This document shows, in pieces, positions 12,018-33,200 of a stretch of DNA of 64,000 bases. The stretch lies in assembly GCA_029210725.1 (NCBI GenBank), contig JARGFM010000012.1, positions 36,956-100,955 on the forward strand, in the 5' to 3' direction. The translations under genes were made by a program, and so were the position numbers. How positions within the stretch are numbered: position 1 is the first letter of the stretch; every line of letters begins with the position of its first letter. Source of the stretch: Bacteroidales bacterium. Its GTDB lineage: Bacteria > Bacteroidota > Bacteroidia > Bacteroidales > GCA-2748055. The notes below the pieces were generated by a model. The model did no database searches, had not been told where the DNA came from, and saw only the letters and a program-made list of their open reading frames with translations.

Positions 12018-15000
12018 TCAGTTGGCCATGGGTACTGTAAAGCTGAAAACCGAGCCCTTTCCGGGCGAGCTTTCAACTTTTATCTCGCCCCCGTTTTTTT
12101 CCACGAATTCCCTGCAAATGATCAGTCCGAGTCCTGTACCTTTTTCCCCGGCCGTCCCGGTGGATTTGAATTTCTCATCTATCCGGAACAATTTCTCCAT
12201 CTGTTCCGGGCTGATCCCGATCCCTTCATCCACAATGGACACTTCGATCTCCTCCTTCCGGGGCTTCAGCTGGATCTCGACCTTTTTATCTCTGTTGGTA
12301 AATTTGACTGCATTGGTAACCAGGTTGCGTATTACACTGTTGATCATGTCCCGGTCCCCGTAAGCGTAAACTTCATCCTGTTCAGATGCATGTAACATGA
12401 TTCCCTTTTTCTCGGCCAGCAGCCGGTGCAGGTTGATATTCTCCTGAACCAGGGAGCTCAGGTTAAACTTTACCGGATCGTACTTGATTCTTCCCCTTTG
12501 CGATCTGGACCAGGTCAGGAGGTTTTCCAGCAGGTCGAGCAGATGTTTTACAGACTGGTTTATCTTCATAAATCCAGCTTTATGGTCCTCTCTTTCCGTA
12601 TCGTCAAAACTTTCTACCATCAGCTCGCTGATCTGCTGATTCTGATGCTTCAGCAGGCGGTTGGTCCGCGACTTCAACAGGTAAATATAGATCCAAACCG
12701 CGATGGATACAGAGACCAGTATCTCCAGCAGGATAAACCACCAGGATAACCAGATGGGTGGAGTGATAAGAATACTAAGCTGCAGAGGCGGATCACTCCG
12801 GTATCCATCCGTGTTCTCGGCCACCACCTTCAGCAGATAATTGCCTGCTTTCATGTTGGTATAGGAAACATAGTTCCTGGAGCCGGCATTGTTCCAGTCC
12901 GTATCAAGATTTTCCATGATATAGCTGTAGTGCAGATCGCCTGTTTGCAGGTTGTTGAGGGCCGCAAATTCGACAGAGAAGAAGCGATGCCGGTAATCCA
13001 GAACAATCTCCTCCATGTAGCTCACATTTTCACTGCTGTAGAAATTTCCATCGGATTCTACTATACGTTCCGGCTGACCCTCAAACTCCTCTTCCAAATC
13101 AATCCCTCCGATTCGTACTTCTTTCCCAAGCACTTCCAGGCTGGTAAGGGTGAACTCCGGGACATTCGTGACCGGTTCCAGGGTCTCGGGGTCGACGATA
13201 TTCATGCCATATACCCCTCCGAAATATAGTTTCCCGCTGGGTCCCCTGTAGAAGGAGCCTCCATTAAATTCGTTGCTCTGCAGGCCATCGTTCATATCAA
13301 AGTTCCTGACTTCAAAAGTCTCCAGATCGAAGCGGCAGATCCCCAGATTGGTGCTTAGCCAGATGCAGTTGTTGTTATCCGGAAGCACTCCGTATATCAC
13401 CTCATTGGCCAGTCCCTCGTTCACCCCAAAACGTCGGAAGGTTCCCGTGGCCGGATAGAACATATTCAGTCCGCTGTTGGTCCCTATCCAGAACCTCTCC
13501 TGAGGGTCTTCATAAATAGAAAAGACAATATTATCCGAAATACTGTTGGGATCTTCGGGATCGTAAAAATAGCTGATGCAGCTGCCATCTTCCGGATTCA
13601 GCCTGCAGAGGCCGCCTCCGTAGGTTCCCACCCAGAGTTTGTCATTTTTATCCTGGTGAATGGCGGAGTAAATGAAGTTATGCGGGGGGCCTGTTTCCTG
13701 GGCTGCGGCGGTCAGGTATCGCCTGAAACTCTTTTGATCCTCCAGCAGGAGGTTCAGTCCGTTGCGTGTGCCTACCCAGATTCTTCCCTCCCGGTCCTCA
13801 AACACTGCCCGGACTGAATTGTGTGACAGGGAAGCCGGATTGCCGGGATCATGTCTGAAGTGCGTAAAAGACCGCTTATCCGGATGGAACAGATTTAGTC
13901 CGCCTCCGTCGGTCCCGATCCAGATTCGGCCCCTGCTGTCCTGGTAGATTTTCCGGATGGAGGAGTGAGCCAGTGAGCCGGGTTCAAGTGGATTGTGATC
14001 GTAATGTGTGTAGGTCCCCCGGCGCTGATCGTAGCAGGAGATCCCATGAGCATTTGTGCCCATCCACAGGGTGCTGTCCGAAGCTTCACATATGGTCCAG
14101 ATAAATGAACTGGCCAGGCTGTTTGGATTAAAGGGGTTGTTTTTGAACAGGGTAAACCTGTTTGAATGGGGATTCATTACAGAGATGCCGGCACCAAAGG
14201 TCCCAAACCAGGTGGCCCCGGAACGATCCTGGAAAACACAATTGATGGAATTATCCGAGAGACTTTCCGGATCAGCAGGATTATGCATATAATGCCGGTA
14301 ACTGAAGTTTTCCGGATCGATCCAGAAAACACCATTTCCAAAGGTTCCGAACCAGATATCTCCGGTGAGGTCTTCCAGCAGTGATTCCCTGGGGTCCGTG
14401 GCCAGCGAGTGAGTGCTTCCTCCTGTTGAGAGAAAAAGTTGCAGGTCGTCCTCTTCTTTCCGGTAGCAGTAAAGTCCCTCCCCGGTAAGTATCCATACCT
14501 GGCCCAGATAGTCCGGAAGGACCCTGGTGATCCTGGCATTTTCCCCGGCAAAATTCAGTGCGATCAACTGACTCCGGCGGTCGGGCGACAGGTCAAGCTT
14601 CACCAGCCCCCTGTCGGTCCCGAGCCAGAGAGTCTCGTCTCTCAGTGCCATATCGTAAATGGAGGTGCTGGTATCGATCGGGCCATCCCTGTTTTCACTG
14701 AAAAATAATCCTGATTTCCTGTCGTAACTGTAGAGCCCCTTATAGGTGGAAATCCAGAAACGGCCCGATTTATCGTTCAGAAATCCGCTGATCCGGCTGC
14801 TTAGCCCAACCAGCTCCTGGTCGTCCGGTACGACTCTCTGAACTTCTCTGGAGAACCGGTCCACATGGTTCAGTCCCCGGAAAGTTCCCACCCATATTTC
14901 ATTTCTAAGGTCTGCCTCAATGGCGGTGATGGTGTCGTTTGAGAGGCTGGAGATGTTTTTCGGGTCGTGCTTCAGGGCGGTAAACATACCTGTACGCGGA

Positions 15001-15326
15001 TTGTACCTGGTAAGTCCGCTTTTGGAGCCGAGCCAGATGACTCCCGATTTATCTTCGAAGATGAGTTCAATCCATTTATCTGCCAGCAGATTGTGCTGAT
15101 CGGTATGTGCTCCGTACACCGTGATGTTCTGGCCATCATATTTATTCAGGCCGTCCTCGGTCCCAAACCACATAAATCCTTTGGAGTCCTGGTATATATG
15201 GTAGACCGAACTCAGGGAGAGGCCATCGTTGATGGTAATCCGCTTAAAGGGGAGATAGTCATCCTGTGCGGCCAGTCCGGCGGAGCAGAGCAGCAGTCCG
15301 ATTAAAAGCAGTAAGTACCTGGTCAT
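12018..15326 (-). CDS. sensor histidine kinase with periplasmic two-component-regulator propeller/Y_Y_Y domains (no REC or HTH output)
   Basis: 1102 aa. Signal/TM segment, many propeller repeats (e.g. WFGTEDGLNKYD, WIGTDGGGLNLF), a single TM (WWFILLEILVSVSIAVWIYIYLL), then a short DHp-like segment and HATPase_c (NLVTNAVKF, DEGIGI, GTGLGL). Confidence 0.8.
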   Translation of the reverse strand: MTRYLLLLIGLLLCSAGLAAQDDYLPFKRITINDGLSLSSVYHIYQDSKGFMWFGTEDGLNKYDGQNITVYGAHTDQHNLLADKWIELIFEDKSGVIWLGSKSGLTRYNPRTGMFTALKHDPKNISSLSNDTITAIEADLRNEIWVGTFRGLNHVDRFSREVQRVVPDDQELVGLSSRISGFLNDKSGRFWISTYKGLYSYDRKSGLFFSENRDGPIDTSTSIYDMALRDETLWLGTDRGLVKLDLSPDRRSQLIALNFAGENARITRVLPDYLGQVWILTGEGLYCYRKEEDDLQLFLSTGGSTHSLATDPRESLLEDLTGDIWFGTFGNGVFWIDPENFSYRHYMHNPADPESLSDNSINCVFQDRSGATWFGTFGAGISVMNPHSNRFTLFKNNPFNPNSLASSFIWTICEASDSTLWMGTNAHGISCYDQRRGTYTHYDHNPLEPGSLAHSSIRKIYQDSRGRIWIGTDGGGLNLFHPDKRSFTHFRHDPGNPASLSHNSVRAVFEDREGRIWVGTRNGLNLLLEDQKSFRRYLTAAAQETGPPHNFIYSAIHQDKNDKLWVGTYGGGLCRLNPEDGSCISYFYDPEDPNSISDNIVFSIYEDPQERFWIGTNSGLNMFYPATGTFRRFGVNEGLANEVIYGVLPDNNNCIWLSTNLGICRFDLETFEVRNFDMNDGLQSNEFNGGSFYRGPSGKLYFGGVYGMNIVDPETLEPVTNVPEFTLTSLEVLGKEVRIGGIDLEEEFEGQPERIVESDGNFYSSENVSYMEEIVLDYRHRFFSVEFAALNNLQTGDLHYSYIMENLDTDWNNAGSRNYVSYTNMKAGNYLLKVVAENTDGYRSDPPLQLSILITPPIWLSWWFILLEILVSVSIAVWIYIYLLKSRTNRLLKHQNQQISELMVESFDDTEREDHKAGFMKINQSVKHLLDLLENLLTWSRSQRGRIKYDPVKFNLSSLVQENINLHRLLAEKKGIMLHASEQDEVYAYGDRDMINSVIRNLVTNAVKFTNRDKKVEIQLKPRKEEIEVSIVDEGIGISPEQMEKLFRIDEKFKSTGTAGEKGTGLGLIICREFVEKNGGEIKVESSPGKGSVFSFTVPMAN

Positions 15327-16836: not shown

Positions 16837-17055
16837 GATAAAATTCAGCCGCCTAAGTTCGTTAATTTATTTCAGCTAACATAATGGCCTGCAGGTGACC
16901 TGGAATCTGTAAGAGGATCCGCCTGAAAAGAGTGCGTCGGGGAGGATGGTCGTTGATGTTATAGGAGATATTTTTTTATTTCACAGGAAATTTTCTTAAC
17001 CTGTGTAATTATTTTCTTTCATGCACCTGTCAAACAACAAAAGCTATTTCTTATC

Positions 17056-17694
17056 ATGAAAAATTTCCGGATGTTCACTGCCATGTTGTTCACTTTTGGA
17101 CTCATGCAGGGCGGAATTGCCCAGATTGCAGGAACTGCACACGATTTCTCAAGCGAATCGTAGGCCCCTGGCTCTAACCGCGGATGTGGCGTTTGTCACA
17201 CTACCCACCAATCACTTCCAGTCGCCAGCGCTCCCTTGTGGCACCATGAAACCACGGTGCTGGCCGGTTATACCCTCTATGATTCACCCACATTTGATGG
17301 AGGAACCACCATTATCGATCCAGGGGCAAGCTCACGCCTCTGCCTAAGCTGCCATGACGGGACCGTGGCACTGGAGAATTTCGGTGGGGTCAGTTCCGGC
17401 ACCAACTATATCGATCCTTCATCGCGGATCGGGGGGGTGGCCGGCAATGATCTGAGCACAGAACATCCCATCTCTTTTGATTATACCGATGCGCTGGCCT
17501 CCGGTGACGGAGGTCTTTTCCCTCGTACAACCACCAACAGCGGGCTGGGGAGCACCATCGATAACGATATGCTTTTCAGTAGCAGGATGGAGTGCGCCTC
17601 GTGCCACGATGTTCATAACAGGTACGGGGTCATGCACCTGTTGAAGATGTCCAATGTGAACAGCGAACTCTGCCTGACCTGCCATAACAAATAG
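17056..17694 (+). pseudogene. tetrahaem c-type cytochrome (Cyt1) interrupted by in-frame TAG at 17161-17163
   Basis: The ATG at 17056 encodes a signal peptide, MKNFRMFTAMLFTFGLMQGGIAQIAGTAHDFSSES. A TAG follows, and the same frame then continues APGSNRGCGVCHTTH...CLSCH...CASCH...CLTCHNK. It is paralogous to the N-terminus of Cyt4 (CIFCHTPHHSLPASPLW versus CGVCHTTHQSLPVASAPLW). Confidence 0.7.
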
Positions 17695-17735
17695 TGCAGC
17701 CGGTTTCAGTCTAATCCGTAATAAGTTCATCACCC

Positions 17736-18818
17736 ATGAACAGACCTCTGCCCTTTGTTTCCATTGGAATAATTTGCTTCACCTGCCTGCTCTTTGCCTG
17801 TAATTCACAGGTGGCAAAGTCCCCTTCTCCAGGATCCCTGGTCATTTTTCCGCCACCCCCCGATACCACCCGGATACAGTTTCTGACCTACTTCAGCTCT
17901 TCTGATGATCTGGAGGGGGATCAGGGAGCATTTCAAAGGTTTTTGTTTGGTGAGGAGCCCCCGCTCAATATGATCAAACCCTATGGAATCACCGTTCATT
18001 AGGAGAAAGTTTATATCTGTGATACCGGTTTGGGCGGACTGGAGGTGCTGGATCTGGAAAAGGGGAGCTTCGAGTATTTCATCCCGGGTGGCAAGGGTCA
18101 GTTGAAACTGCCCATCAACTGTTGTGTGGATGAACGGGGCTATCTTTATGTGGCCGATGCCAACCGTGGGCAAATTGTCGTGTTTGACGGGAATCAGCAG
18201 TTCGTGCATGCTTTTGGGGAAGCGGAAGGATTCAGGCCCACGGATGTGGGTGTTCACCAGGGGATCATCTGGGTGGCCAATGTCCGGGACCACTCGGTCT
18301 GTCTCTACGGAAGCGATGATTTTAAATTGATCGACCGCAGACCGGATCTGGGACCGGAGGAGGAGGGATTTATCAGGCAGGCCACAAATATGGCCATCCT
18401 GAACGACAGGCTCTATATTTCGGATTTCGGCGATTTCAATGTAAAATCCTATACCCTCGGGGGGGAATACCTGGGTGTGGTAGGTGGTTATGGGAACGGA
18501 CCCGGACGCTTTACCAGGCCCAAGGGTATTGCTCAGGACCGGGAGGAGAACCTCTATTTAGTGGACGCTGCATTCGAAAATGTACAGCTGTTTAATGCCG
18601 GGGGAGATTTGTTGATGCATTTTGGTGGTGCTTACAAAGGAGCCGGAGCCATGTGGCTGCCTGCTGCTGTTGAGATCAGTTATGAGAACCTCTCCTTTTT
18701 CGAACCTTATGTTGATGATAGTTTCGTGCTGAAATACCTGATTTATGTTACGAACCAGTATGGTCCTGCTAAAGTCAATGTGTATGGTTTTGTGGAACAG
18801 AAACCAGCTTATCCTTAA
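17736..18818 (+). pseudogene. NHL-repeat beta-propeller lipoprotein (NHL1) interrupted by in-frame TAG at 18000-18002
   Basis: Lipobox LLFAC. The reading ...KPYGITVH-TAG-EKVYICDTGLGGLEVLDL stays in one frame across the stop and forms a normal NHL blade. Later blades include FTRPKGIAQDREENLYLVDAAFENVQLF. Confidence 0.7.
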
Positions 18819-18827
18819 AAGCCGTCC

Positions 18828-19401
18828 ATGAAGTGCCTGCGAAACATATGCATAAGGCTGCTTTTAGGGATGGGAATGATCTTTTTAAGTCAGTGTTCCC
18901 CCTATGCGGGAAAAAGTCTGTTGCACTTTTTCTTTGATGGGGTTCCGGATGCAGACACCATCTCTGTGGCCTCTGCAGATCCAGGAATCGCAGACCCCGA
19001 TTCAACTTTGATGGCCTCCGGTCAAAGGGCTCCGGATGAAGCGGAGCTGTTCATCCACTATCCTTATGGAGAGCGGGAATGCGCCTCCTGTCATAATAAG
19101 AGCTCGCTGGGAAGCATGACAGAACCCCAGCCTGCACTTTGCTATATCTGTCACGAAGATCTGACCGGACAATTTAACTACCTGCATGGACCGGTTGCCG
19201 GGGGGGTACTGCACCGCCTGTCACGATCCCCATAGCTCGGGGAATGAGATGCTGCTCAGGTTTACCGGTGAAAAGCTCTGTTTCTATTGCCATAAGGCTG
19301 GTAGTGTCATGCGAAACGAGATGCATGAAGGGATTGAGGGCATGCTTTGTACCGATTGCCATAATCCGCACGGGGGAGAAGATAACTATATTTTTCAATA
19401 G
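18828..19401 (+). pseudogene. pentahaem lipoprotein c-type cytochrome (Cyt2) with +1 frameshift in a G7 run (19200-19206)
   Basis: Lipobox FLSQC. Frame A ends ...YLHGPVAGG and frame B continues YCTACHDPHSS.... Removing one G restores the repeated HxPxxxGxCxxCHxPH unit. Haem motifs are CASCH, CYICH, CTACH, CFYCH and CTDCH. Confidence 0.7.
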
Positions 19402-19419
19402 CCAGCAGACCATAAAAGG

Positions 19420-21264
19420 GTGAACCGATTCAGAACCATATTGCTTCTTGCAGCCTTGCTTAATCCGATCTGCTCGTTCGCACAGGCACAGCGCTCAGCA
19501 GGTATCTGGTACCTCAGGAATATTTCGGGGGAGCTGGATCTGAAGGGGCAGTACAGGCAGCTGGTAAGCTCATTCAATGAGATTACCGAGGACCAGAGAA
19601 GTACCTACCTCCTGAGCGGACTGAAGCTGAATACCAGCAGCTACCTCTGGGACAAGGATATATTTCTGATTGATCTGAATGCTGCCTACAGCCCGGAGTT
19701 AAGGGATTAAAAGTACATTACTGTTCCCGACCGGTCGGAAGTAAGGACCCTGAAGAAGGTGGACCTGAAGACCACTCTCTTTAATAACAAAGCGGTGAGC
19801 CTGCAGGGCTTTTATAATTTCGATCAGAGCTATTACAACCGCGAGCTACTTACCAATGTCAGATCCAACAACCGGCAATGGGGAGGGATCCTTTCCCTCC
19901 ATAACAGCTTCCTGCCTATAAGTTTGACATACAGGGATCAGATGTGGAGTCAGGAAGAGATACAGTCCGGGCGGACCTTTAACATGGACCAGCAGAATAT
20001 GGAGGCCAGGACTTCCAGGTCTTTCGGAGCAAGGGATCGTACCGAATTGCTCTATTCTCATCAGAATTATATTTACCGTTATGCAGAGCTTCACCGGACC
20101 GTGCATCAAATCGATCGTTTGGCATTCAATAACAGCCTCTTTTTTGATGCAGCCAGGAAGTATAATCTGAATTCCCGGTTTACATGGTACGATCAGGAAG
20201 GGACCACCAGTTTCAGGCGTGTGGAGCTTCTGGAAGGTCTTTCCATGCAGTTGCCCCGTCATTTGAAACTGAGGACCAGTTTTAATCTTTACGGGCTAAA
20301 GGATCCGGTACAAACCTGAAACCAGAAAAGAACCCGGGCCTCCCTGCAGCATAAACTGTTCCAGAGCCTGACCACCAGGCTCTACATGAAGTACACCCGG
20401 CATGAGCATTCAACGGAGGGAATGCCGGGGATGCTCCAGGTGATCCGGGAAGAACAGAGCATTTCCGACGGGGAGGTGACACTTTTGAAGAAGCCCTATG
20501 TGCAGGATCTGTCGGTCGTTGTCAGGGACGCGAACGGATTCATGATCTACCAGCTTAATTTTGATTATATCCTGATTAAGCGGGGCAGCTTTACGGAGAT
20601 CCAGCGAGTTCCGGGCGGCTTGATACCCAACGGGGCTGCGGTCTATATCGATTACAGCTATCAGCAACCAGGTTCCTACTCTTATGGGGCCAACAACAAT
20701 TATTTTAGTGCAAGTGTCCTCTTGTTCAACAGCTTGTTAGAGCTTTATTACCAGTATTCCATCCAGGACTATCCCAGGGTGGATCAGGGTGACCTGCTCA
20801 CCCTGAACTACTTCCGTCAACATTTGTATGGAGTTCGTCTGGATCTGGGATTTGCCAGGGCCGGTGTGGAGGCCGACCTGTTCAACAGCAATATCATCCC
20901 TTACCGGATGAGGCGATATTATATGGATGTGAACTGGAATCTCAGGTCCAGACTGTTGCTTACACTAAATGGAAATATCCGGGATTACAATATGATTGCA
21001 GATGAGGTGGATCAGTGCTACGCCAATCTTTCCGGGAAGATGGTGTACCGGATCAGGCCAGGCATGAGAGTCAGCCTGGAGTCGGGATACCTGAATCAGC
21101 GCGGGTCACATATCGATCTGGATCTGCTTACCTCCAGGGTCGAATTTCAATCCGCCTTTAACAAACTTCAGCTCAGGCTTGGACTGGAGATGTACAGACG
21201 GCTTTATATGAACAGTGAGTTTGCCTTTAATGGAGCGTATGTACAATTAACCAGAAGATTTTAA
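19420..21264 (+). pseudogene. large outer-membrane beta-barrel protein (about 614 codons) interrupted by in-frame TAA (19708-19710) and TGA (20317-20319)
   Basis: A GTG start encodes the signal peptide MNRFRTILLLAALLNPICSFAQA. Three ORF-track pieces (19420, 19759, 20386) are all in one frame. The sequence is Tyr/Asn/Ser-rich with an alternating pattern, and the C-terminus ...NGAYVQLTRRF ends in Phe as in BAM substrates. Confidence 0.6.
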
Positions 21265-21268
21265 CAGT

Positions 21269-22150
21269 GTGCTTATGATACAATGGCTGATAGTAGATAT
21301 CCTGATCGTTCTGACGGTTCCCTTCAGCAGATCGGCCACCCCGGATACGGGGCAGGAGCCCTTCTCAGAGTGCAGGGAGTGCCATTCGGATCTGGTGGAG
21401 CAGGAGATCATGCACTATCCGGCCGGGGATGCCTGCAATAACTGTCACGAATCCACCGGCGCATCCCATCCTTCAGAAGACAGCGCTGGATTTCGATTGA
21501 TGGACCAGATACCCGTGCTCTGTTTTTACTGTCATGAGGAGAACGGACCAGTAAGTTTTGCTCATAAACCCGTTGAAGATGGCAACTGTCTGGGATGTCA
21601 CGATGCCCACGGTTCATCGGAGTCTTCCCTTTTGCTTGCCGGGGATCCGGATCTGTGCCTCTCCTTTCACAACCGGGAATACAGGTCCGACTCTACGGAA
21701 ACAGCAAATATCGGCCGGCTTGTCAAGGGGAAAATGACGGCACATTCGGCCATCCCGGGCGGAGGGTGCATGTCCTGTCACCAGGCCCATGGCTCCGGCT
21801 TCCGGTCCCTGCTGGTGGACCTGTATCCGGAGGAGGACTACCTGCCGGCACTTACTGAGAATTTCGGGCTCTGTTTTCTTTGCCATGATACCGACCTTCT
21901 GGAAGCCGGGGAGACTGAATGGGGCACCGGGTTCAGGAATGGGAAGAAGAATCTTCACAGGCTTCATATAAACGGGAACAAAGGAAGGAACTGCCGGATG
22001 TGTCATAACATTCACGGATCGCCCCGGCCCTTTCTGGTGGAGGAGCAAATTGTCTTTGGGTCCTGGGAGATGCAGATGAATTTTATTCCTGATGAGCAGG
22101 GGGGATCCTGTCTTCCCGGATGTCACGGAAAACTGTCATACCAGAGGTAA
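21269..22150 (+). CDS. multihaem c-type cytochrome (Cyt3): 7 CXXCH, 1 degenerate CLSFH and a terminal CX3CH
   Basis: 293 aa. Haem motifs are CRECH, CNNCH, CFYCH, CLGCH, CMSCH, CFLCH and CRMCH, arranged in a regular repeat (HxPxxxGxCxxCH...LL...LCxxCH). There is one broken site, CLSFH, and a C-terminal CLPGCH. Confidence 0.75.
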   Translation: MLMIQWLIVDILIVLTVPFSRSATPDTGQEPFSECRECHSDLVEQEIMHYPAGDACNNCHESTGASHPSEDSAGFRLMDQIPVLCFYCHEENGPVSFAHKPVEDGNCLGCHDAHGSSESSLLLAGDPDLCLSFHNREYRSDSTETANIGRLVKGKMTAHSAIPGGGCMSCHQAHGSGFRSLLVDLYPEEDYLPALTENFGLCFLCHDTDLLEAGETEWGTGFRNGKKNLHRLHINGNKGRNCRMCHNIHGSPRPFLVEEQIVFGSWEMQMNFIPDEQGGSCLPGCHGKLSYQR

Positions 22151-22153
22151 GCG

Positions 22154-23179
22154 ATGGAGAGAATGAGATATAGAGGGCCATGTAATGAGCGGGTAAAAGA
22201 GTATGAAAGGGCTGTCCGGACGGGCATGATGCTTATGCTGCTCCTTCTGTTCGTACTTCCCTTAAAGGCTCAGTCCGCAGAAGAATACCGTGTGAAATGG
22301 ATCGGGGAGTACCCCGGGGAAAGGGGAGAAAAAAGGACCAGCTTTGGCGACCGGCTATCCAGGATTGTATTCGGGCAGAAGCCGCAGGATCTGATGAAGC
22401 CCTTTAATGTGGTGGCTGTAGATCAGGAGCAGTTCTGGATTCTCGACCAGGGAGCAGGGGGAGTGTTTCAGGTGGCCGGTGGTCAGGGAGCCTGGATCCG
22501 GCCCCTCAGGCGAGCTGAGCTGGAATACCCTTCCCTGGTGGGGATCTGCCGGATGCCTGGCGGAGACTTGCTTCTCACCGATTCCAGACTAAACAGGGTG
22601 TTGCGCATTTCCGAAGGCCAGTTGATGATTTTCGGAGATTCCATCCCCCTGGATCAGCCAACCGGAATAGCCTGTAACAGAAGCAACGGAGAGGTCTGGG
22701 TGGTGGAGACCGGGGAACATCAGCTCACCAGGATCAGCAGTGAGGGGAAATTGATTGAGAAGATCGGGGGAAGGGGTACAGGTCCCGGTCAGTACAATTT
22801 TCCGACCTTTTTATGGATCGATCAGGAGGGCCGGATTTACGTTGTTGATTCAATGAATGATCGCATTCAGATTCTGAACCAGGAGGGGGCCTGTCTTGGG
22901 TCTTTTGGAGAATCGGGCGATGCTACGGGGTATATGGCCCGGCCCAAAGGAATCGCAACGGATTCAAAGGGAAACATTTACGTGGCCGATGCACTTTTTC
23001 ACGCAGTTCAGATTTTTGATAGTCAGGGACAATTCCTCTACAGTTTCGGAAGCCAGGGGCAGGGTCCGGGTGAGTTCTGGATGCCTGCAGGCCTTTATAT
23101 CGATGAAAAGGACCATATTTTTGTAGCTGACACCTACAATGCCAGGGTCCAGGTTTTTCAACTGGAAAAAGAAAATTGA
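22154..23179 (+). CDS. NHL-repeat six-bladed beta-propeller protein (NHL2)
   Basis: 341-aa ORF. The likely start is at 22226 (MMLMLLLLFVLPLKAQS signal). NHL blades include GPGQYNFPTFLWIDQEGRIYVVDSMNDRIQIL, ARPKGIATDSKGNIYVADALFHAVQIF and GPGEFWMPAGLYIDEKDHIFVADTYNARVQVF. Confidence 0.75.
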   Translation: MERMRYRGPCNERVKEYERAVRTGMMLMLLLLFVLPLKAQSAEEYRVKWIGEYPGERGEKRTSFGDRLSRIVFGQKPQDLMKPFNVVAVDQEQFWILDQGAGGVFQVAGGQGAWIRPLRRAELEYPSLVGICRMPGGDLLLTDSRLNRVLRISEGQLMIFGDSIPLDQPTGIACNRSNGEVWVVETGEHQLTRISSEGKLIEKIGGRGTGPGQYNFPTFLWIDQEGRIYVVDSMNDRIQILNQEGACLGSFGESGDATGYMARPKGIATDSKGNIYVADALFHAVQIFDSQGQFLYSFGSQGQGPGEFWMPAGLYIDEKDHIFVADTYNARVQVFQLEKEN

Positions 23180-23180
23180 G

Positions 23181-24656
23181 ATGAGACAATTCCCAGCCAT
23201 AGCACTGCTCCTCCTGGTCCTGATCCCTGCCTTAGCCGGAGCCCAGTCCATTGTTACCACGGTTCATAACCTCTCCGTATCGGGTCCTGGGGATGTGCGG
23301 GCCGTATCGGAATCGGAAATCTGCATTTTCTGTCATACTCCGCACCACAGCCTGCCGGCCAGTCCGCTCTGGAACAAGGATGACCGGGGATATACCTACA
23401 CACTTTATCACAGTTCCACCGCTGAGGCTGTGCCGGGTCAGCCCGATGGTGCTTCCATTCTCTGTCTCAGCTGTCATGATGGCACCACCGCACTCGGACA
23501 GGTATTGAGCCGGACAGGCGATATTGGCTTTTCGGGAGGAATCAGCACCCTCCCTCCGGGGACTTCAAATATTTCCACCGATCTGGCCGATGATCATCCG
23601 ATCTCCTTTGATTATACGACCGGACTGGCGGCAGCCGACGGACAGTTAAAGGACCCCGCGGCTCTTGTACCTCCTGTTGCTCTGTTCAGTGGCCGCATGC
23701 AGTGTACCTCCTGCCACGATCCCCACAGGAACCTGACCAATGATTTCCTGGTGCTGACCAAGCAGTTTTCGGAGCTGTGCTTTAGCTGTCATAACCGTAA
23801 TTTCTGGTCTTTTTCATCCCATTCCAATTCTACGGCTGCCTGGAACGGAAACGGGACCGATCCCTGGCCACATACCACTTATCAGACGGTGGCCGAAAAT
23901 GCATGCGAGAGCTGTCATATTCCGCACAATGCATGAAACAGCCAGCGGCTCCTGAATGAACTCGCCGAAGAGAATAACTGTCTTCCCTGTCACAATGGGA
24001 ATGTGTCGTCCACCAACATCCTGGCCCAGCTGACCAAGCCCTACCTGCATAATGTGTATGCATACAACCTGGAGCATGATGCTGCAGAGGATCCGCTGGT
24101 GCTTTCCATGCATGTGGAGTGCGAGGATTGCCATAATCCGCATGCTGTAAGCAATACACCTGCCCTGGCCCCGGCCGCCAATGGATTTCTCACCGGGATC
24201 TCCGGGGTGGATCAGAGCGGGAACCCGGTGGATCCCATTCAGTATGCTTATGAGCTTTGTTACCGTTGCCATGCCGACAGTCCGGCCAAACCGACCAGTC
24301 TGACCACCCGGCTGATTGAGCAGAATAATGTGATACTGGAGTTTGATCCGGCCAATCCCTCGCATCACGCACTTACTTCGGCAGGGGCCAATCCCAATGT
24401 CCCCAGTCTGATTGCTCCTCTTAGCGAATCAAGCATGATCTACTGTACGGATTGCCATGCCTGTCATGATCCGCACGGAATCAGTCATAACCAGGGCAAC
24501 AGCACCAACCATGCCCATCTGATCAACTTCGACAGGAGCATGGTCTCACCTGCCAATAATGGTTTGCTGCAATTCGAGAGCCTGGGCGTGTTCTCAGGCC
24601 GTTGCTACCTGAATTGTCATGGTCAGAATCACATGGGATTTGCCTTTGAGTATTAA
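23181..24656 (+). pseudogene. about-decahaem c-type cytochrome (Cyt4) interrupted by in-frame TGA at 23934-23936
   Basis: The ATG at 23181 encodes the signal MRQFPAIALLLLVLIPALAGAQS. Motifs CIFCH, CLSCH, CTSCH, CFSCH and CESCH precede HIPHNA-TGA-NSQRLLNELAEENNCLPCH, all in the same frame. CEDCH, CYRCH, CTDCH(ACH) and CYLNCH follow. Confidence 0.7.
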
Positions 24657-26052: not shown

Positions 26053-26464
26053 GAGATATCGTATTGGAAATGAACTATAAATGCTGAGTTGGAAAAACGG
26101 GGGATAGCCTCGTGCCGGCAGGGGCTGTCTGGCAAGCGCCGGACGCTAAAATTTGTCCCGTTGTTTGATATTGAGGAACAGGCGTTTGGAAGTGATATCC
26201 ATATAAATATTCATACCAGGTACAAAGATAAGCCGATGCGGCCAATTAAGATGGAAGAGAAGGATGTTCTTGGGCATTTAGCTTGCCCTGATCTCTTCTT
26301 CAGCTTCTTTCATCCTGCAAAAAGCTGTGTATAAGATCTATTTCTGCCCCCCCCGTTTCAGATAAAATACCCAATTATGGGGATCAGGCGCAAGCAATTC
26401 TGTTCTATTTTTGCAAATCAGTGATCCTTATACAGATTTGTTTGTTATACTAGTCTCAAAGTAG

Positions 26465-27727
26465 ATGCATGTGCTTAAGATTGCCGGGACATATGTAAGT
26501 GAGCTGGTAGGGCTGGTGAATGAGATGTCACCCTACCTTCTACTGGGATTCTTATTTGCCGGAATACTCCGGGTATTATTTCCAAGGCACTTGATTACCA
26601 GGTATATGGGTCAGAGTAATTTCAGATCGGTATTCAATGCATCCCTGCTTGGGGTCCCCATGCCCCTTTGTTCCTGCGGGGTACTTCCTGCCGGGATCGG
26701 GTTCTACAAGAATGGAGCCGCCAGGGGACCTACCATTTCTTTTTTAATCTCCACACCCCAGACCGGAGTGGATTCCATTCTGGCCACCTACTCCCTGCTC
26801 GGACTCCCGCTGGCTATAATCAGGCCGATAGTTGCTCTTTTTACAGGGCTTTTAGGAGGAGTGCTGGGAAATGCAGTGGACAGAAATGCTGTGGAGGAGA
26901 TTGAACGCGGAAGCAAAAGTGAAGAGAAATATGAGAGATCGGTCCGCGAACTTTTCAGGTATGGATTTGTCGAACTGATACAGGATATCTCCAAGTGGCT
27001 GCTGATCGGTATACTGCTTGCTGCCTTGCTGGCAGTATTAATTCCCAATGATTTTTTCACAAATACCATTTCCAGCGAATACCTGGCCATGCTCCTGATG
27101 ATCGCAGCTTCGGTACCGCTCTATATTTGTGCCACGGGTTCTATTCCCATTGCAGCGGTTCTGCTGATGAAGGGGCTGGCTCCCGGAGCTGCACTGGTCC
27201 TGCTTATGGCAGGTCCGGCCACCAATATCGCCACCATGGCAGTGATAGGTAACTCGCTCGGGAAAAGAGCTCTCTGGGTATACCTGGGCAGCATCATCGG
27301 CGGGGCGCTTTTTTTCGGGATCCTGGTCAACGAACTTCTGCCCAGGGAGTGGTTTACCGGTGCCATTGCATCGGTGGCTCATGAACACGGAACCGGATGG
27401 TTCAAATGGGCCTCATCGGCCCTTCTTGTGCTTTTGATTCTGAACGGATATTTAATGAAACTGCTCTCCTCCCGAATGGAGCGGAGAAGAGACCGGGAAA
27501 AAACAAATCGTATGAAACATGATATACTACAATACCGGGTAGAAGGGATGACCTGTGATCACTGTAAGGCAAGCGTTGAAAACGGATTGAAGAGTCTGAA
27601 GGGTATCTCGGAGGTAGTGGCCGACCGGATCAATAATCAGGTGAGCATTCAGGCCGGCTCTGTGTCAGAGAATCAAATCAGGGAGACCATTGAAAAGCTG
27701 GGTTACAGGTTTGTGGGCAAGCTTTAG
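26465..27727 (+). CDS. predicted metal permease (SO_0444-like) fused to a C-terminal heavy-metal-associated (HMA) domain
   Basis: 420 aa. Multi-TM permease with a PLCSCGVLP motif, and a C-terminal ferredoxin-like HMA domain with GMTCDHC. Confidence 0.75.
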   Translation: MHVLKIAGTYVSELVGLVNEMSPYLLLGFLFAGILRVLFPRHLITRYMGQSNFRSVFNASLLGVPMPLCSCGVLPAGIGFYKNGAARGPTISFLISTPQTGVDSILATYSLLGLPLAIIRPIVALFTGLLGGVLGNAVDRNAVEEIERGSKSEEKYERSVRELFRYGFVELIQDISKWLLIGILLAALLAVLIPNDFFTNTISSEYLAMLLMIAASVPLYICATGSIPIAAVLLMKGLAPGAALVLLMAGPATNIATMAVIGNSLGKRALWVYLGSIIGGALFFGILVNELLPREWFTGAIASVAHEHGTGWFKWASSALLVLLILNGYLMKLLSSRMERRRDREKTNRMKHDILQYRVEGMTCDHCKASVENGLKSLKGISEVVADRINNQVSIQAGSVSENQIRETIEKLGYRFVGKL

Positions 27728-27730
27728 GAG

Positions 27731-30202
27731 ATGACTCTGAATGATTTACATACGGGCGAATCTGCAACCATTGCCAGGATCAGGGGTCGTGGCGCTTTTC
27801 GTAAACGCCTGACAGAGATGGGTTTTATCCGCGGGAAAAACATTACTGTCTTAAAGTCGGCGCCTCTGAAGGATCCGGTAGAATACAGAATACTGGACAG
27901 TAATGTATCGCTGCGCAGAAGCGAAGCCAGCCTGGTGGAAGTTATTTTGGAGAGCGACTACCAGACGATATCACCGGGCAGGGCGGGAATGATTTCCGAT
28001 GTTTTTCAGAGGGGACCGTTGATGCCCAGGCCCGGGAAAATCATTGATGTGGCCCTGGTGGGGAATCCCAATTGCGGTAAGACCACTTTGTTTAACCGGG
28101 TCTCCCGTTCCAGGGAACATGTGGGAAACTATTCAGGGGTCACTGTCGGTTCGAAGGAGGCTCTGTTCAACCACAGGGGCTATACCTTTCGCATGACCGA
28201 TCTTCCGGGCACCTACTCTCTTTCCGATTACTCCAGTGAAGAGCGCTTTGTCAGGGAGCATATCCTGAAAAACAAGCCCGATGTGGTGGTCAATGTGGTC
28301 GATGCCAATAACCTGGAGCGGAATCTCTACCTCACCAGTCAGCTGATCGACATGGATGTTACCGTGGTAGTGGCACTGAATATGTATGATGATTTGTTGG
28401 AGAAAAAGGATAGAATCGACCTTGGATTATTGAGTAAGCTTCTGGGCATAAGGGTTGTGCCAACAATAAGTACACGGGGCAAAGGAATTTTCAGGTTGTT
28501 GAATCATGTCATTCGTGTTTTTGAAAACCAGGATCCTGATATCAGGCATATCCATATCCATTACGGGGAGGAGATCGAACAATCGGTGCAAAAACTACAG
28601 GAGCTGATTCGTCTCACACCCTCCCTCACAGATCACTACTCATCCCGGTTCATTGCCCTGAAACTGCTGGAACAGGATGACAATTGCACCTTTCTGATCT
28701 CAGGTGCGGAAAATTTTCTGGAGATACAGGCAACAGCCAGGGAGGAGAATGAAAGGATCAGCAGACTTTTCAGGGACGATACCGAAACTCTGATCACAGA
28801 CGCCCGCTATGGCTTTGTGGCCGGAGCTCTGAAGGAGACCATGAAGAGAAGCGGGAACGATCCGGGCTTTTCGCGTTCTCAGCGAATCGATCGCGTACTC
28901 ACTCATAAGTACCTGGGCCTGCCCATTTTTCTGGGTTTTCTCTGGATCATGTTCCATGCCACCTTTACCTTGGGGAACTATCCCATGGGCTGGATCGAAC
29001 AGGGCGTGGATCTGCTGGGTCAGCTTATCCGCACAAATATGGCAGAGGGGATCTTCCGGGATATGCTGGTTGACGGGGTTATCGGGGGTGTGGGAGGCGT
29101 CATTGTCTTTCTTCCCAATATCCTCATTCTGTTTTTCTTTATCTCGCTGATGGAGGATACGGGCTATATGGCCCGTACCGCTTTTATTATGGATAAGGTG
29201 ATGCATTTGTTTGGCCTTCACGGGAAGTCCTTTATACCGCTGATCATGGGCTTTGGCTGCAATGTGCCTGCCATCATGGCTACCAGAACGCTGGAGGACC
29301 GGAACGATCGTCTGCTGACCATGCTGATCATACCCTTTATGTCGTGCAGTGCCCGGCTTCCGGTCTATGTGCTGGTGGCCGGAGCCATTTTTCCTGCAAA
29401 AGCAGGGAATGTAATTTTTATGCTTTACATCCTCGGGGTTGTATTTTCCATGCTGATGTCCATCCTTTTTAAGAAGACACTTTTTAAGAATAGCGAGGCC
29501 CCTTTTGTCATGGAGCTGCCCATGTACAGGAACCCCGGGATCCGCGTGATCATGCGCCATATGTGGAGAAAGGGCTCACATTATCTGAAAAAGATGGGTG
29601 GAGTGATCCTGGTGGCATCCCTGGTGATCTGGGTGCTGGGGTATTTTCCCAGGGGGGTGGAGTATTCAAGGGATTATGAGCATCTTATAAACCTTGAGAA
29701 ACAGGCTGGTTCCGGGCAATCCGCCTCACAAATTATGCTTTTGACCAGGCAAATGGAATCGGAGCGACAGCAAAACTCCTATATCGGAAGGATTGGTATG
29801 GCCGTAGAACCCCTTATCAGGCCTTTGGGCTTTGACTGGAAGATGGGCATCAGTCTGGTCACAGGTTTTGCTGCCAAGGAGATTGTGGTAAGCACCATGG
29901 GTGTACTCTACCAGGCTGATCCCGGTGGGGAGGAAGGGACGGCCTCCCTGCAGGACAGGATCAGCAAGGAGGTGTACAGTGAAGGTCCTAAAGCAGGAAG
30001 CAGGGTGTTTACTCCTCTGGCCAGCATCTCTTTTCTCCTGTTTGTGCTTTTTTATCTGCCCTGTGTCGCGGTTATCGCCACGGTAGGAAGGGAATCGGGA
30101 AGCTGGAAGTGGGCTGCTTTTGTCCTGTTTTATACGACGGCCATCGCCTGGACGGCCAGTTTTGCAGTATACCAGCTGGGCAGTTTGTTCCAACTGGGAT
30201 GA
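27731..30202 (+). CDS. feoB: ferrous iron transporter, FeoA-FeoB fusion
   Basis: 823 aa. N-terminal FeoA SH3-like domain (ATIARIRGRGAFRKRLTEMGF), G domain (GNPNCGKTTLFN, DLPGTYS), and a C-terminal FeoB membrane domain. Confidence 0.9.
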   Translation: MTLNDLHTGESATIARIRGRGAFRKRLTEMGFIRGKNITVLKSAPLKDPVEYRILDSNVSLRRSEASLVEVILESDYQTISPGRAGMISDVFQRGPLMPRPGKIIDVALVGNPNCGKTTLFNRVSRSREHVGNYSGVTVGSKEALFNHRGYTFRMTDLPGTYSLSDYSSEERFVREHILKNKPDVVVNVVDANNLERNLYLTSQLIDMDVTVVVALNMYDDLLEKKDRIDLGLLSKLLGIRVVPTISTRGKGIFRLLNHVIRVFENQDPDIRHIHIHYGEEIEQSVQKLQELIRLTPSLTDHYSSRFIALKLLEQDDNCTFLISGAENFLEIQATAREENERISRLFRDDTETLITDARYGFVAGALKETMKRSGNDPGFSRSQRIDRVLTHKYLGLPIFLGFLWIMFHATFTLGNYPMGWIEQGVDLLGQLIRTNMAEGIFRDMLVDGVIGGVGGVIVFLPNILILFFFISLMEDTGYMARTAFIMDKVMHLFGLHGKSFIPLIMGFGCNVPAIMATRTLEDRNDRLLTMLIIPFMSCSARLPVYVLVAGAIFPAKAGNVIFMLYILGVVFSMLMSILFKKTLFKNSEAPFVMELPMYRNPGIRVIMRHMWRKGSHYLKKMGGVILVASLVIWVLGYFPRGVEYSRDYEHLINLEKQAGSGQSASQIMLLTRQMESERQQNSYIGRIGMAVEPLIRPLGFDWKMGISLVTGFAAKEIVVSTMGVLYQADPGGEEGTASLQDRISKEVYSEGPKAGSRVFTPLASISFLLFVLFYLPCVAVIATVGRESGSWKWAAFVLFYTTAIAWTASFAVYQLGSLFQLG

Positions 30203-30227: not shown

Positions 30228-33200
30228 ATGTGTAACACTATGTTAAAAAAGCTATCCTTTCTCGTTTCTATGCCATTTATGGCTGTCCTGGTGATATCCC
30301 TGATAGTTGTTCTGGCACTGGCCACCTTTGTTGAGAGTGCCTATGGCACACAAACGGCATGGGCCGTGATATATGGGACGCACTGGTTTGAGCTGTTGAT
30401 GCTCCTGATCGGAATCAACCTGGTAGGGGTCATGGTAAAGCAGAAATTCTTCAGACGAAAGAAGATCGTCGTTCTGTTGTTTCACCTGGCATTTATCCTG
30501 ATCCTGCTGGGAGCCTCTGTAACCCGCTTTATCAGTTATGAGGGCAATATGCATATCCGGGAAAATTCTGCATCTGATGTCATGCTGAGTAACAATGCCT
30601 ATATAAATGTCTTACTGGAAGCCAGGGGGGAGCGCTCCGAGCATGCCAGAGAGGTGATGCTGACCGAACTGACCCCGAAAGATTACCGGATGAGCACCCG
30701 TGTGGGTGGAGAAAAGGTCACGATCAGATCCACAGAATACCTGAGCAGTGCGATTGAGCAGTATATATCCTCTCCGGGGGGAGAACCTTATATGCAGCTG
30801 ATGCTGGTAAGTGACCGGCAGACCACCATCGGGATCCCATCGGGGTCCACACAGGAGGTAAACGGAATGACCATTGGTTTTAACAGGGCCGATACATCGG
30901 CCATGGTTAATTTTTATTCCAGGGGCGATATGATATGGATGACGGCACCCTTTGCTGTTTCGGTCATGCAGATGGGTGGCGCCGGAGGTGAAGAGTATGC
31001 TCCCGGGCAGGAAGTACCTGTGAGGGAGAATACCCTCTACGCGATGGCGAATATGCGTTTGGCACTTCAGAGTTATATGCCTTCTGCCAGGAAGCAGATT
31101 GTAAGAGCTCCTGCTGGTCAGAGGGGTTCACATCTGGGAGCCGTCCGCCTGGAGATCAGTTACAGGGGGATGACAGGCGAGCTTTACGTACCGGGACTGG
31201 CCAGGCTGGCAGGACAGCCGGTCAGCGGAAGCATGGGTGATCTTAACTATACGGTCACTTATGGATCCAGAGAGATCAAAGTGCCATTTTCGCTCTTCCT
31301 GAAAAATTTTGAGGTGGAACGTTACCCCGGTTCCAACAGTCCATCGTCCTTTGCCAGCGATGTGGTATTGCTTGACCAGGAGATGGGAATCCAGGAAGAA
31401 CGGAGGATATTTATGAATAATGTATTAAAGCACAGGGGCTACCGATTCTATCAGGCTTCCTATGACAACGATGAGCAGGGAACGATTCTTTCGGTGAACA
31501 GGGACAGGGCGGGTACCCTCATCACCTACCTGGGTTATCTGGTTTTGATAGCCGGAATGGTAGTGGCTCTTTTTGTTCCCGGAACACGCTTCTCCATGAT
31601 CGCCAGGAAATCTGCTCCTGCAGCAAAGGTCCTGGTTATGGTTCTTTTGCTTCTGGGCGGAAGTCTGTCGCTGTTTTCTCAGGAGGTTCCGCCCAGGGAT
31701 GTGGCCCAGGACTTTGGCTATCTTTGGGTTCAGGACAAAGGGGGCCGTTTTGAACCCATGAATACCCTCTCCAATGAGGTGGTCAGGAAGATTACCAAAC
31801 ACAGCCATTATCAGAGCTACAGCGCCGATCAGGTACTTCTGGGAATGATTCTCTATCCGGATGTCTGGCAGAATAAAGAGCTGTTCGAGATAAAACATCC
31901 GGAGCTGCATCGCCTGACTGGTTACAGGGGAGAAATGGTAAGTTTTAAGGATATGATGGATTCCACAGGAAGTTATCTGCTCTCTAACCTGGTGAATGAG
32001 GCATATGCCAAGCAGGTACCCATGCAGACAGAGTTGGACCGGGAGCTTATTAAACTGGACGATCGTCTGAACGCTTTCTACCTGGTGCAGTCGGGAGGAC
32101 TGATCCGCATATTCCCTGATGAGGGAGCTGAGAATCACCGGTGGGCATCGCTTAGCGAGGCGATGATGGGACAGATGACTCAAAAAGAGGATACCATGTC
32201 CAATGTCTTTTTCCGCTACCTAAGTGCCTTGCAGCAAGGGGATTATACAGCTGCCGGGTTCTATGTGGACCAGCTTGGTGAGAGCCAGCTTTCCTCTGAA
32301 ATTCTCCCCCCCGAATCCAAAAAGAAGATGGAGCTCATTTACAACCGGATCAATATCTTTCCGCTTCTGGCAAGATTTTACGCTCTCTTCGGGGTCATTA
32401 TGATGGTGCTGGCCTTTCTGTTGGTTTTCAGACCGCGCAAGCTATATAAATTCCTCTTCAAGGTGGGAGTGATCCATTTGTCAGTGGCACTGGTGGCACA
32501 TACCGTGGCCCTGGGGCTCAGATGGTATATCAGCGGTCATGCCCCCATGAGTAACGGTTATGAATCGATGATCTTTGTGGCCTGGGTAACTTTGCTGGCC
32601 GGATTGATCTTTGTAAAACGATCCGGATATGCGCTGGCACTTACCGCCATACTGGCGGCTCTCTCCTTACTGGTAGCAGGAATGAGTAATATGAATCCGG
32701 AAATAACGAATCTGGTGCCTGTCCTTAAGTCTGTATGGCTTACCATCCACGTGGCTGTGATTATGGCCGGGTATGGCTTCCTGGGTTTGGCTTCTATCAT
32801 GGGCTTGCTGAATGTTGCATTGTACGCTTCGCTTTCTCCCTCCAATAAAACCAGGCTTGAAGAGGTGATTCAGCAGGTGACCCATGTGAACCACCTGACC
32901 TTGATTGTGGGTCTCTATTTTATGACTGCCGGGGTTTTCCTGGGAGGGGTATGGGCCAACGAATCATGGGGACGATACTGGGGATGGGACCCCAAGGAGA
33001 CCTGGGCCCTGATTACGGTGCTGGTGTATGCTTTTGTGACGCATATGCACCGGATTCCCGGACTCAGGGGAAGCTTTGCCTTTAACCTGGCGTCCTTCAT
33101 CTCTTACAGTTCCGTAATGATGACTTATTTCGGGGTGAACTACTTCCTGGGAGGAATGCACTCCTATGCCAGTGGTTCCTCCTTTACAATACCCCTGTGG

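Follow-up and report, generated by a model that had tools for sequence, protein, structure and literature searches.

What kind of electron-transfer system is encoded by a run of genes for multihaem cytochromes, NHL propellers and an outer-membrane barrel in a Bacteroidales bacterium, and does it still work? The genes in question occupy positions 17056-24656 of a 64,000-nucleotide stretch of contig JARGFM010000012.1 (assembly GCA_029210725.1, positions 36,956 to 100,955 of the forward strand), hereafter called the window, to which all coordinates refer. An earlier note, made from the letters alone, had read the seven genes as a porin-cytochrome electron conduit of an uncharacterised type. Our analysis indicates that the region is probably a recently inactivated copy of a seven-gene Bacteroidota cluster, a variant of the OmcE-type nanowire/outer-membrane electron-transfer cluster of Geobacter and Desulfuromonas. 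A working conduit, as envisaged in the earlier note, cannot function in this genome, since the cluster consists of pseudogenes.

The seven genes (17056-24656) all run in one direction, on the (+) strand, as had been described, while their spacing was measured as -41 to 41 nt and not as gaps of 1-41 nt. Cyt1 (17056-17694, 212 codons), with a signal peptide and four CXXCH motifs, is the pseudogene of an OmcE-like tetrahaem cytochrome. It is followed by NHL1 (17736-18818), the pseudogene of an NHL beta-propeller lipoprotein with the lipobox LFAC, and by Cyt2 (18828-19401), the pseudogene of a pentahaem cytochrome with five CXXCH motifs that is probably also a lipoprotein (conserved ...FLSQCSPYAGK). 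The Barrel gene (19420-21264, 614 codons) is the pseudogene of a large outer-membrane beta-barrel with a signal peptide and the C-terminal end ...VQLTRRF. Cyt3 (21269-22150) starts 4 nt past the barrel gene and is an open frame for an octahaem cytochrome minus one haem site, with seven CXXCH motifs and a degenerate CLSFH. NHL2 (22154-23179) is intact and encodes an NHL beta-propeller with an ordinary signal peptide. The last gene, Cyt4 (23139-24656), is the pseudogene of an 11-haem cytochrome, of which nine CXXCH motifs were counted here (9-10 had been given); its N-terminal ~200 residues correspond to an OmcE-like tetrahaem domain. All four cytochromes matched the Pfam family Paired_CXXCH_1 (Cyt2, E 6e-26), and both propellers matched NHL/DUF5128, a six-bladed propeller (NHL2 to NHL, E 2e-28). 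The genes, domains and haem counts of the earlier note are thereby retained, but it made no mention of the frames that are broken in five of the genes.

Lesions were defined by frame-by-frame translation and by nucleotide alignment with six orthologous loci. In total, five nonsense codons, one frameshift (+1), two in-frame deletions and one lost haem cysteine were found. These nine lesions are spread over six of the seven genes and interrupt the frames of five, NHL2 alone being unmarked. In Cyt1, the codon at 17161-17163, TGG in the relatives, is an in-frame TAG. In NHL1, TAG likewise stands in frame at 18000-18002 in place of AAR (AAA/AAG in the relatives), and in Cyt2 an extra G in the G7 run at 19200-19206 causes the +1 frameshift. 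The barrel gene carries three lesions: GAA>TAA at an invariant Glu (19708-19710), TGG>TGA (20317-20319) and, after 20396, a 117-bp in-frame deletion with which ~39 residues of barrel strands are gone (614 codons here, 653 in the relatives). In Cyt3, TGY>TTT at 21665-21667 turns CLSCH into CLSFH and destroys one haem site. Cyt4 is hit by GGR>TGA at 23934-23936 and by a 210-bp in-frame deletion after 24456, which fuses two CXXCH motifs with the loss of two haem sites; the gene comprises 505 codons, compared with 555-581 in the relatives. Both deletions are clean and located at short repeats. By type, the point lesions include G>T three times (GAA>TAA, GGR>TGA, TGY>TTT), A>T once and G>A twice, which is too few to interpret.

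The flanking genes present a different picture. All seven flanking orthologues (CTP transferase, Gmk, YicC, the hybrid histidine kinase, MatE, TnaA and ArsP) align over their full length without a stop, and long open reading frames (ORFs) make up 91% of the window. Since these orthologues are free of stops, the decay is specific to the cluster, far beyond chance. On the branch leading to the window, amino-acid change amounted to 85:61 in the cluster versus 71:81 in the flanks (odds ratio 1.6, p ~0.05), and this modestly faster change in the cluster fits a short period without selection.

It could be argued that the cluster is functional and that its lesions (stops, frameshift and deletions) are errors of sequencing or assembly, or that stop codons are recoded. 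An extra G in a G7 run is indeed typical of long-read assemblies, and related nanopore loci from metagenome-assembled genomes (MAGs; our loci L045, L019 and L016) are visibly fragmented. However, these error-prone loci are broken in their flanks too, whereas the window is broken in the cluster only and its seven flanking orthologues are free of lesions. Only the homopolymer insertion in Cyt2 resembles a possible sequencing error; five of the lesions are base substitutions to TAG, TAA or TGA and two are the clean deletions at short repeats. Reassignment of a stop codon was rejected: TAG, TAA and TGA each interrupt a frame, at codons for Trp, Lys, Glu, Trp and Gly in the relatives, and because all three stops are used and four different amino acids are replaced, no single recoding explains the set. 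An Rfam scan of the window returned tRNA only, namely an ordinary tRNA-Ser, and no suppressor tRNA. An exact 24-mer spanning the TAA of the barrel gene had no match in metagenome contigs. We regard artefact or recoding as highly improbable, and on the evidence of its sequence the cluster is a recently inactivated relic in this genome.

Intact counterparts were found in numerous relatives. A search with the reconstructed barrel yielded 235 homologues, none of them named, nearly all 645-653 aa long and all from Bacteroidales MAGs. Scanning one genome per GTDB species gave 50 loci, 49 of which are labelled Bacteroidota, and wherever the length of the contig allows, all seven genes are found. In the relatives the intact proteins measure 212 (Cyt1), 360 (NHL1), 190 (Cyt2), 645-653 (Barrel), 293-295 (Cyt3), 337-338 (NHL2) and 555-581 aa (Cyt4), Cyt4 being the best conserved protein of the cluster among the species-level loci. 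Loci usually have the order Cyt1-NHL1-Cyt2-Barrel-Cyt3-NHL2-Cyt4; some begin with NHL2-Cyt4, and the cluster is therefore composed of two modules. In DNA, even the closest loci share just ~78% identity with the window. One locus labelled Synergistaceae (L026, DAIRTK010000027.1) has a complete Bacteroidales-type cluster with a barrel 47% identical, and this contig is probably mis-binned.

An exhaustive profile search for the barrel family gave 1785 cluster representatives at E<=1e-3. Among the matches is an isolate, Aestuariivivens sp. NBU2969 (Flavobacteriaceae; GCA_019931125.1, contig JAIOUU010000008.1, 64.5-86.5 kb). Each of the seven genes has a single intact orthologue there (Cyt1 with 217 aa), and glycosylation genes and a ResB/CcsA gene come after them. 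More distant members of the barrel family have a five-gene core (OmcE-like protein, NHL, cytochrome, barrel, cytochrome) adjoining glycosylation-type genes (PMT_2, TPR, DUF2142, methyltransferase). The seven genes are hence kept together in ~50 species MAGs and one isolate, in agreement with the co-conservation on which the earlier note had staked its claim, and the loci surveyed indicate that the seven-gene cluster is conserved across Bacteroidota.

The identity of the cluster emerged from Cyt1 and Cyt4. When the intact orthologue of Cyt1 was searched against the PDB, 9YUQ (E 1e-21) and 7TFS (E 4e-17) were matched over the whole length, with no other match. Residues 28-225 of the intact Cyt4 orthologue matched the same two entries (7TFS, E 1e-33; 9YUQ, E 6e-24), which are the only credible PDB matches for Cyt1 and for the N-terminal domain of Cyt4. 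The entry 7TFS is the OmcE nanowire of Geobacter sulfurreducens, and 9YUQ (16 chains) is presumably the D. soudanensis OmcE bundle of the 2025 omcE preprint; the omcE clusters concerned are those of the GSU0618 region in G. sulfurreducens and of D. soudanensis WTL. The sequence in the 7TFS alignment retrieved a G. sulfurreducens protein, P0121, that is 98% identical. Its locus shows the upstream synteny with pur, resB and ccsB that the preprint reports for omcE clusters (bioRxiv 10.1101/2025.10.22.684050). In blastp comparisons with G. sulfurreducens OmcE, identity was 33% for Cyt1, over the full length, and 37% for the Cyt4 domain. E-values of multihaem proteins are in part driven by CXXCH motifs; the matches to OmcE, and that of Cyt3 described below, nevertheless extend over the full length.

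The haem ligands were compared by aligning Cyt1 and the N-terminal Cyt4 domain of four Bacteroidota loci with the two solved OmcE proteins. Invariant positions are H31, C51/C54/H55, H58, C103/C106/H107, H149, C201/C204/H205, H208 and C226/C229/H230, so that the four CXXCH motifs and, with H31, H58, H149 and H208, all eight axial ligands are conserved. In the OmcE filament, a histidine of the adjacent subunit completes the ligation of one haem (PMC9473688), and by analogy we infer that the conserved N-terminal histidine is this trans-acting one. These alignments identify Cyt1, and likewise the N-terminal Cyt4 domain, as homologues of the tetrahaem subunit of the OmcE nanowire.

Further components have counterparts in the G. 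sulfurreducens omcE cluster. For the intact Cyt3 orthologue, identity to the 370-aa cytochrome of that cluster is 34% across the entire protein (E 6e-57). Both propellers match the same 361-aa NHL protein, NHL1 with 28% identity over ~330 aa (E 9e-29) and the NHL2 orthologue with 32% identity (E 5e-44). Overall, four of the seven proteins are sequence homologues of G. sulfurreducens omcE-cluster proteins. Cyt2 gave partial matches to both Geobacter cluster cytochromes (E 1e-20 to 2e-23), a weaker relation that could reflect the haem motifs alone. Pfam and NCBIfam scans detected the Por_Secre_tail of the type IX secretion system in none of the cytochromes, which is consistent with export through a dedicated barrel.

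The product of 19420-21264, which has a signal peptide and a C-terminal Phe, had been read as an outer-membrane barrel. By sequence, the family had no match in Pfam, NCBIfam or a PDB profile search. An AlphaFold2 (AF2) model of the closest intact homologue, built from a 62-sequence alignment, reached a predicted local distance difference test score (pLDDT) of 87.3 and contains 30 strands of at least eight residues, arranged as 18 + 12; strand counts were taken from DSSP strings. The best PDB matches in Foldseek were outer-membrane barrels, namely Cir, MtrB (the highest TM-score, 0.44), FimD and LptD, with a probability of 1.0 and none of them close. On this model, the family is predicted with confidence to be a large transmembrane beta-barrel, and this part of the earlier reading holds. 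Between these two sets of strands lies a strongly conserved insert of ~57 residues (model residues 388-444), which by strand parity would face the periplasm or fill the lumen and could be a docking or plug domain. This insert (window ~20470-20640) is a non-barrel segment between strands 18 and 19 with the pattern …VINEEQ.LSDG…NFDY.LI.R…EIQRVPGGLIPN…. The 752-aa barrel of the Geobacter omcE cluster is likewise predicted to be a barrel, with ~34 strands.

Is the system then of an uncharacterised type, as the earlier note had it? Multihaem cytochromes, NHL propellers and a large barrel have been described together three times, in D. ferrophilus, in the uet cluster of Tenderia and, with the closest fit, in omcE clusters, and this part of the claim falls. 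A minimal omcE cluster consists of OmcE, two multihaem cytochromes, two beta-propeller lipoproteins and a large barrel; in many cases glycosylation genes follow and resB/ccsB adjoin (bioRxiv 10.1101/2025.10.22.684050). The match between this gene inventory and ours is complete. Both comprise an OmcE-like tetrahaem subunit with all eight haem ligands, two NHL propellers (here NHL1 with a lipobox and NHL2 with an ordinary signal peptide), two further multihaem cytochromes and a very large barrel without a known family and with at least 30 predicted strands. In both, a ResB/CcsA maturase lies close by, and glycosylation genes adjoin in the more distant Bacteroidota members. They differ in the phylum, in the gene order, in the extra NHL2-Cyt4 module with its OmcE-like domain fused to seven more haems, and in the barrel, which is not detectably homologous (653 aa and ~30 strands here, 752 aa and ~34 strands in Geobacter). 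The window copy, moreover, is dead. OmcE homologues are known from five phyla, Bacteroidota not among them (bioRxiv 10.1101/2025.10.22.684050), and the literature searched showed nothing relevant on OmcE in Bacteroidota; within that literature, an OmcE-type system has not previously been reported from this phylum. What sets the cluster apart from omcE clusters is therefore its occurrence in another phylum, a barrel of a different family and an additional cytochrome with an OmcE-like domain, whereas the combination itself is already published.

The two other described systems share part of this design. The uet cluster of Candidatus Tenderia electrophaga comprises uetA-J and ccsAB and is conserved in electroautotrophs (bioRxiv 10.1101/2022.05.06.490989). 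Going by published descriptions alone, as for the likeness to UetJ, UetC and the D. ferrophilus proteins throughout, it has in common with our cluster a tetrahaem cytochrome, a large barrel (28 strands, ~5 nm pore), CcsAB nearby and two NHL propellers that adjoin an extracellular undecahaem cytochrome, such that NHL2-Cyt4 resembles UetH/I-UetJ. In contrast, uet adds a prolyl isomerase, three trihaem c7 proteins and a cupredoxin, and was proposed for electron uptake. In D. ferrophilus IS5, clusters of NHL and outer-membrane cytochrome genes (DFE_0448-0451 and DFE_0461-0465) are induced during electron uptake (PMC5815863). They encode larger cytochromes, with 12 and 14 haems, and were described without a barrel of their own; their expression is induced by electron-donor starvation, for electron uptake.

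The earlier note had placed the cluster alongside the Mtr/Pcc/Ext conduits. The logic of a periplasmic multihaem cytochrome, an outer-membrane barrel and an outer cytochrome is indeed that of MtrCAB, PioAB, OmbB-OmaB-OmcB (Pcc) and Ext, and the barrel model has MtrB as one of its best structural matches. An outer-membrane multihaem role in extracellular electron transfer remains the best reading of the intact system, but membership of the Mtr families does not stand, all components being below the curated cut-offs for MtrB, MtrA/DmsE and OmcA/MtrC. In the decahaem MtrA/DmsE model TIGR03508 (cut-off 192), Cyt3 reached 73.5 bits and Cyt2 56.1, with 8 and 5 haems instead of 10; in the OmcA/MtrC model TIGR03507 (cut-off 209), scores were at most 24 bits. 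Matches to PF22113 were marginal (Cyt3 40.8, Cyt4 30.7, cut-off 30). No sequence match to an MtrB/PioB- or OmbB-type barrel was obtained in Pfam, NCBIfam or PDB, and the TM-score of MtrB (0.44) is comparable to those of TonB-dependent receptors and LptD. The barrel has ~30 strands compared to 26 in MtrB, the outer cytochromes are OmcE-like and not MtrC/OmcA-like, and NHL propellers are present here.

Homology, co-conservation, the predicted barrel fold and the lesions are direct results of the analysis, whereas from these we infer the following roles of the components. In the intact system, Cyt1 would be exported as an OmcE-like subunit and would polymerise on the cell surface, its N-terminal histidine completing the haem of its neighbour, by analogy with OmcE. 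The ~30-strand barrel may serve as a secretion channel or anchor in the outer membrane and let the cytochrome chain pass. Cyt3, an octahaem protein that resembles MtrA/DmsE below threshold and is presumably translationally coupled to the barrel, could sit in the barrel and feed in periplasmic electrons, and the lipoprotein Cyt2 may likewise feed electrons from the periplasm. The NHL propellers, of which NHL1 would be lipid-anchored, are putative scaffolds or chaperones. Cyt4, in which an OmcE-like domain is joined to seven further haems, is a candidate base, tip or terminator of the filament that would join at one end. In this genome, the nine independent lesions in six of the seven genes would abolish the system, with CcsBA and all neighbouring genes left intact.

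Several points weigh against this reading. We know of no filaments seen in any Bacteroidota. Tetrahaem OmcE-like proteins are widespread, and polymerisation is not required of all of them. The roles of the barrel and the propellers are putative even in Geobacter. Bacteroidota and Geobacter barrels showed no detectable homology in profile-profile comparison by hhalign (62 versus 33 sequences, probability 2%), a probability of 0.7% was obtained for the Bacteroidota profile with the single Geobacter barrel sequence, and in an hmmsearch with 120 sequences the Geobacter barrel scored 1 bit; the barrel component may have been independently recruited. The seven genes encode no inner-membrane quinol dehydrogenase. 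With respect to decay, the lesions were read from a single assembly, and the acceleration of amino-acid change is only borderline significant.

Two other functions of the intact system have to be considered. The ancestral system could have been a static Mtr/Pcc-like conduit with Cyt3 inside the barrel and Cyt1 and Cyt4 as monomeric surface reductases, no polymer being formed and the similarity to OmcE being that of a shared tetrahaem fold. The presence of MtrB among the three best structural matches with the top TM-score, the sub-threshold DmsE/MtrA matches of Cyt2 and Cyt3, the matches of Cyt3 to MtrC/MtrF domain II/IV and the position of the Cyt3 gene directly after the barrel gene are all compatible with such a design, and the UetC barrel of Tenderia was read likewise. 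However, no component reaches the curated cut-offs for MtrB, MtrA/DmsE or OmcA/MtrC, two OmcE filaments are all that is solved among the relatives of Cyt1 and of the N-terminal part of Cyt4, conservation includes the presumed trans-acting histidine at the N-terminus, and the gene inventory fits the omcE cluster and not mtrCAB. We consider a static conduit unlikely, although it and a nanowire are not fully exclusive. It is also conceivable that the intact system runs in reverse, taking up electrons from solids or partner cells, or that it is a surface redox or iron-acquisition module and does not serve respiratory export. The induction of analogous NHL-cytochrome clusters during electron uptake in D. 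ferrophilus (PMC5815863), the conservation of the uet cluster in electroautotrophs and the FeoAB and metal permease genes adjoining the cluster in the closest relatives speak for such a purpose. Yet the FeoB linkage is limited to close relatives, being absent in Aestuariivivens and in locus L055, and the Bacteroidales carriers are presumably fermenters, which would benefit from an electron sink. Sequence cannot reveal the direction of transfer, and we judge this alternative to be quite improbable.

Beyond the OmcE-type reading that we prefer, a more specific proposal can be made, which we put forward tentatively and with considerable doubt. Bacteroidota, including cultivable marine Flavobacteriaceae, might build OmcE-type nanowires with machinery of their own, comprising an independently recruited ~30-strand barrel and Cyt4, which would nucleate, anchor or cap the Cyt1 filament and thus be the tip or stopper sought in Geobacter operons; the lineage of the window would have lost this machinery recently. 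The published omcE operons are without a tip or stopper candidate (bioRxiv 10.1101/2025.10.22.684050).

The surroundings of the cluster are conserved in part. In close relatives the cluster has the same flanks as in the window. A hybrid histidine kinase and MatE border it at one end; at the other lie tryptophanase, a WD40 protein, an ArsP/HMA permease and FeoAB. The hybrid histidine kinase (12018-15326, - strand) contains Reg_prop/Y_Y_Y domains, is divergently oriented and, given that it stays with MatE beside the cluster in close relatives, is a candidate regulator. Aestuariivivens instead has a 7TMR-DISM protein after the cluster. All close relatives have a WD40-repeat gene (~380 aa) between the tryptophanase and ArsP/HMA permease genes; the window lacks it, with only 412 bp left (26053-26464), which is a second loss in the neighbourhood of the cluster. 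The ArsP/HMA permease (26465-27727) and the ferrous-iron transporter FeoAB (27731-30202) lie downstream in the window and in close relatives, but not in distant carriers. CcsBA (30228-33305, + strand), a fused ResB-CcsA cytochrome c maturase with ResB and Cytochrom_C_asm domains, is intact, as had been noted, and is associated with the cluster without being part of it. A ResB/CcsA gene recurs near the Aestuariivivens cluster (L054, 21798 onward) and, in G. sulfurreducens, lies directly upstream of the omcE cluster (L053, 3911-6148).

Some 55-90 nt ahead of the Cyt1 start codon, a conserved AAATTYCTTAAYCTGT-like motif has been retained in the window (~16985-17000); loci L001, L003, L004, L006, L012, L013, L016 and L043 have it in the same place. 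It could be a dedicated promoter or operator. A scan for sigma-70 promoters and terminators and for the Bacteroidetes -7 box TAnnTTTG remained at chance level, with nothing upstream of Cyt1.

To our knowledge, structures of cytochrome nanowires come from only a few Desulfuromonadia and archaea. A conserved OmcE-type cluster in so large and ecologically dominant a phylum, one not counted among the electroactive, would extend the known occurrence of long-range electron transfer in soils and sediments. For comparison with the Geobacter barrel there is now another family, unrelated to it, Cyt4 is a natural candidate for the end subunit of the filament, and the cultured carrier Aestuariivivens sp. 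NBU2969 offers an experimental handle. The dead copy in the window, finally, is evidence that the trait is dispensable and was lost as a unit.

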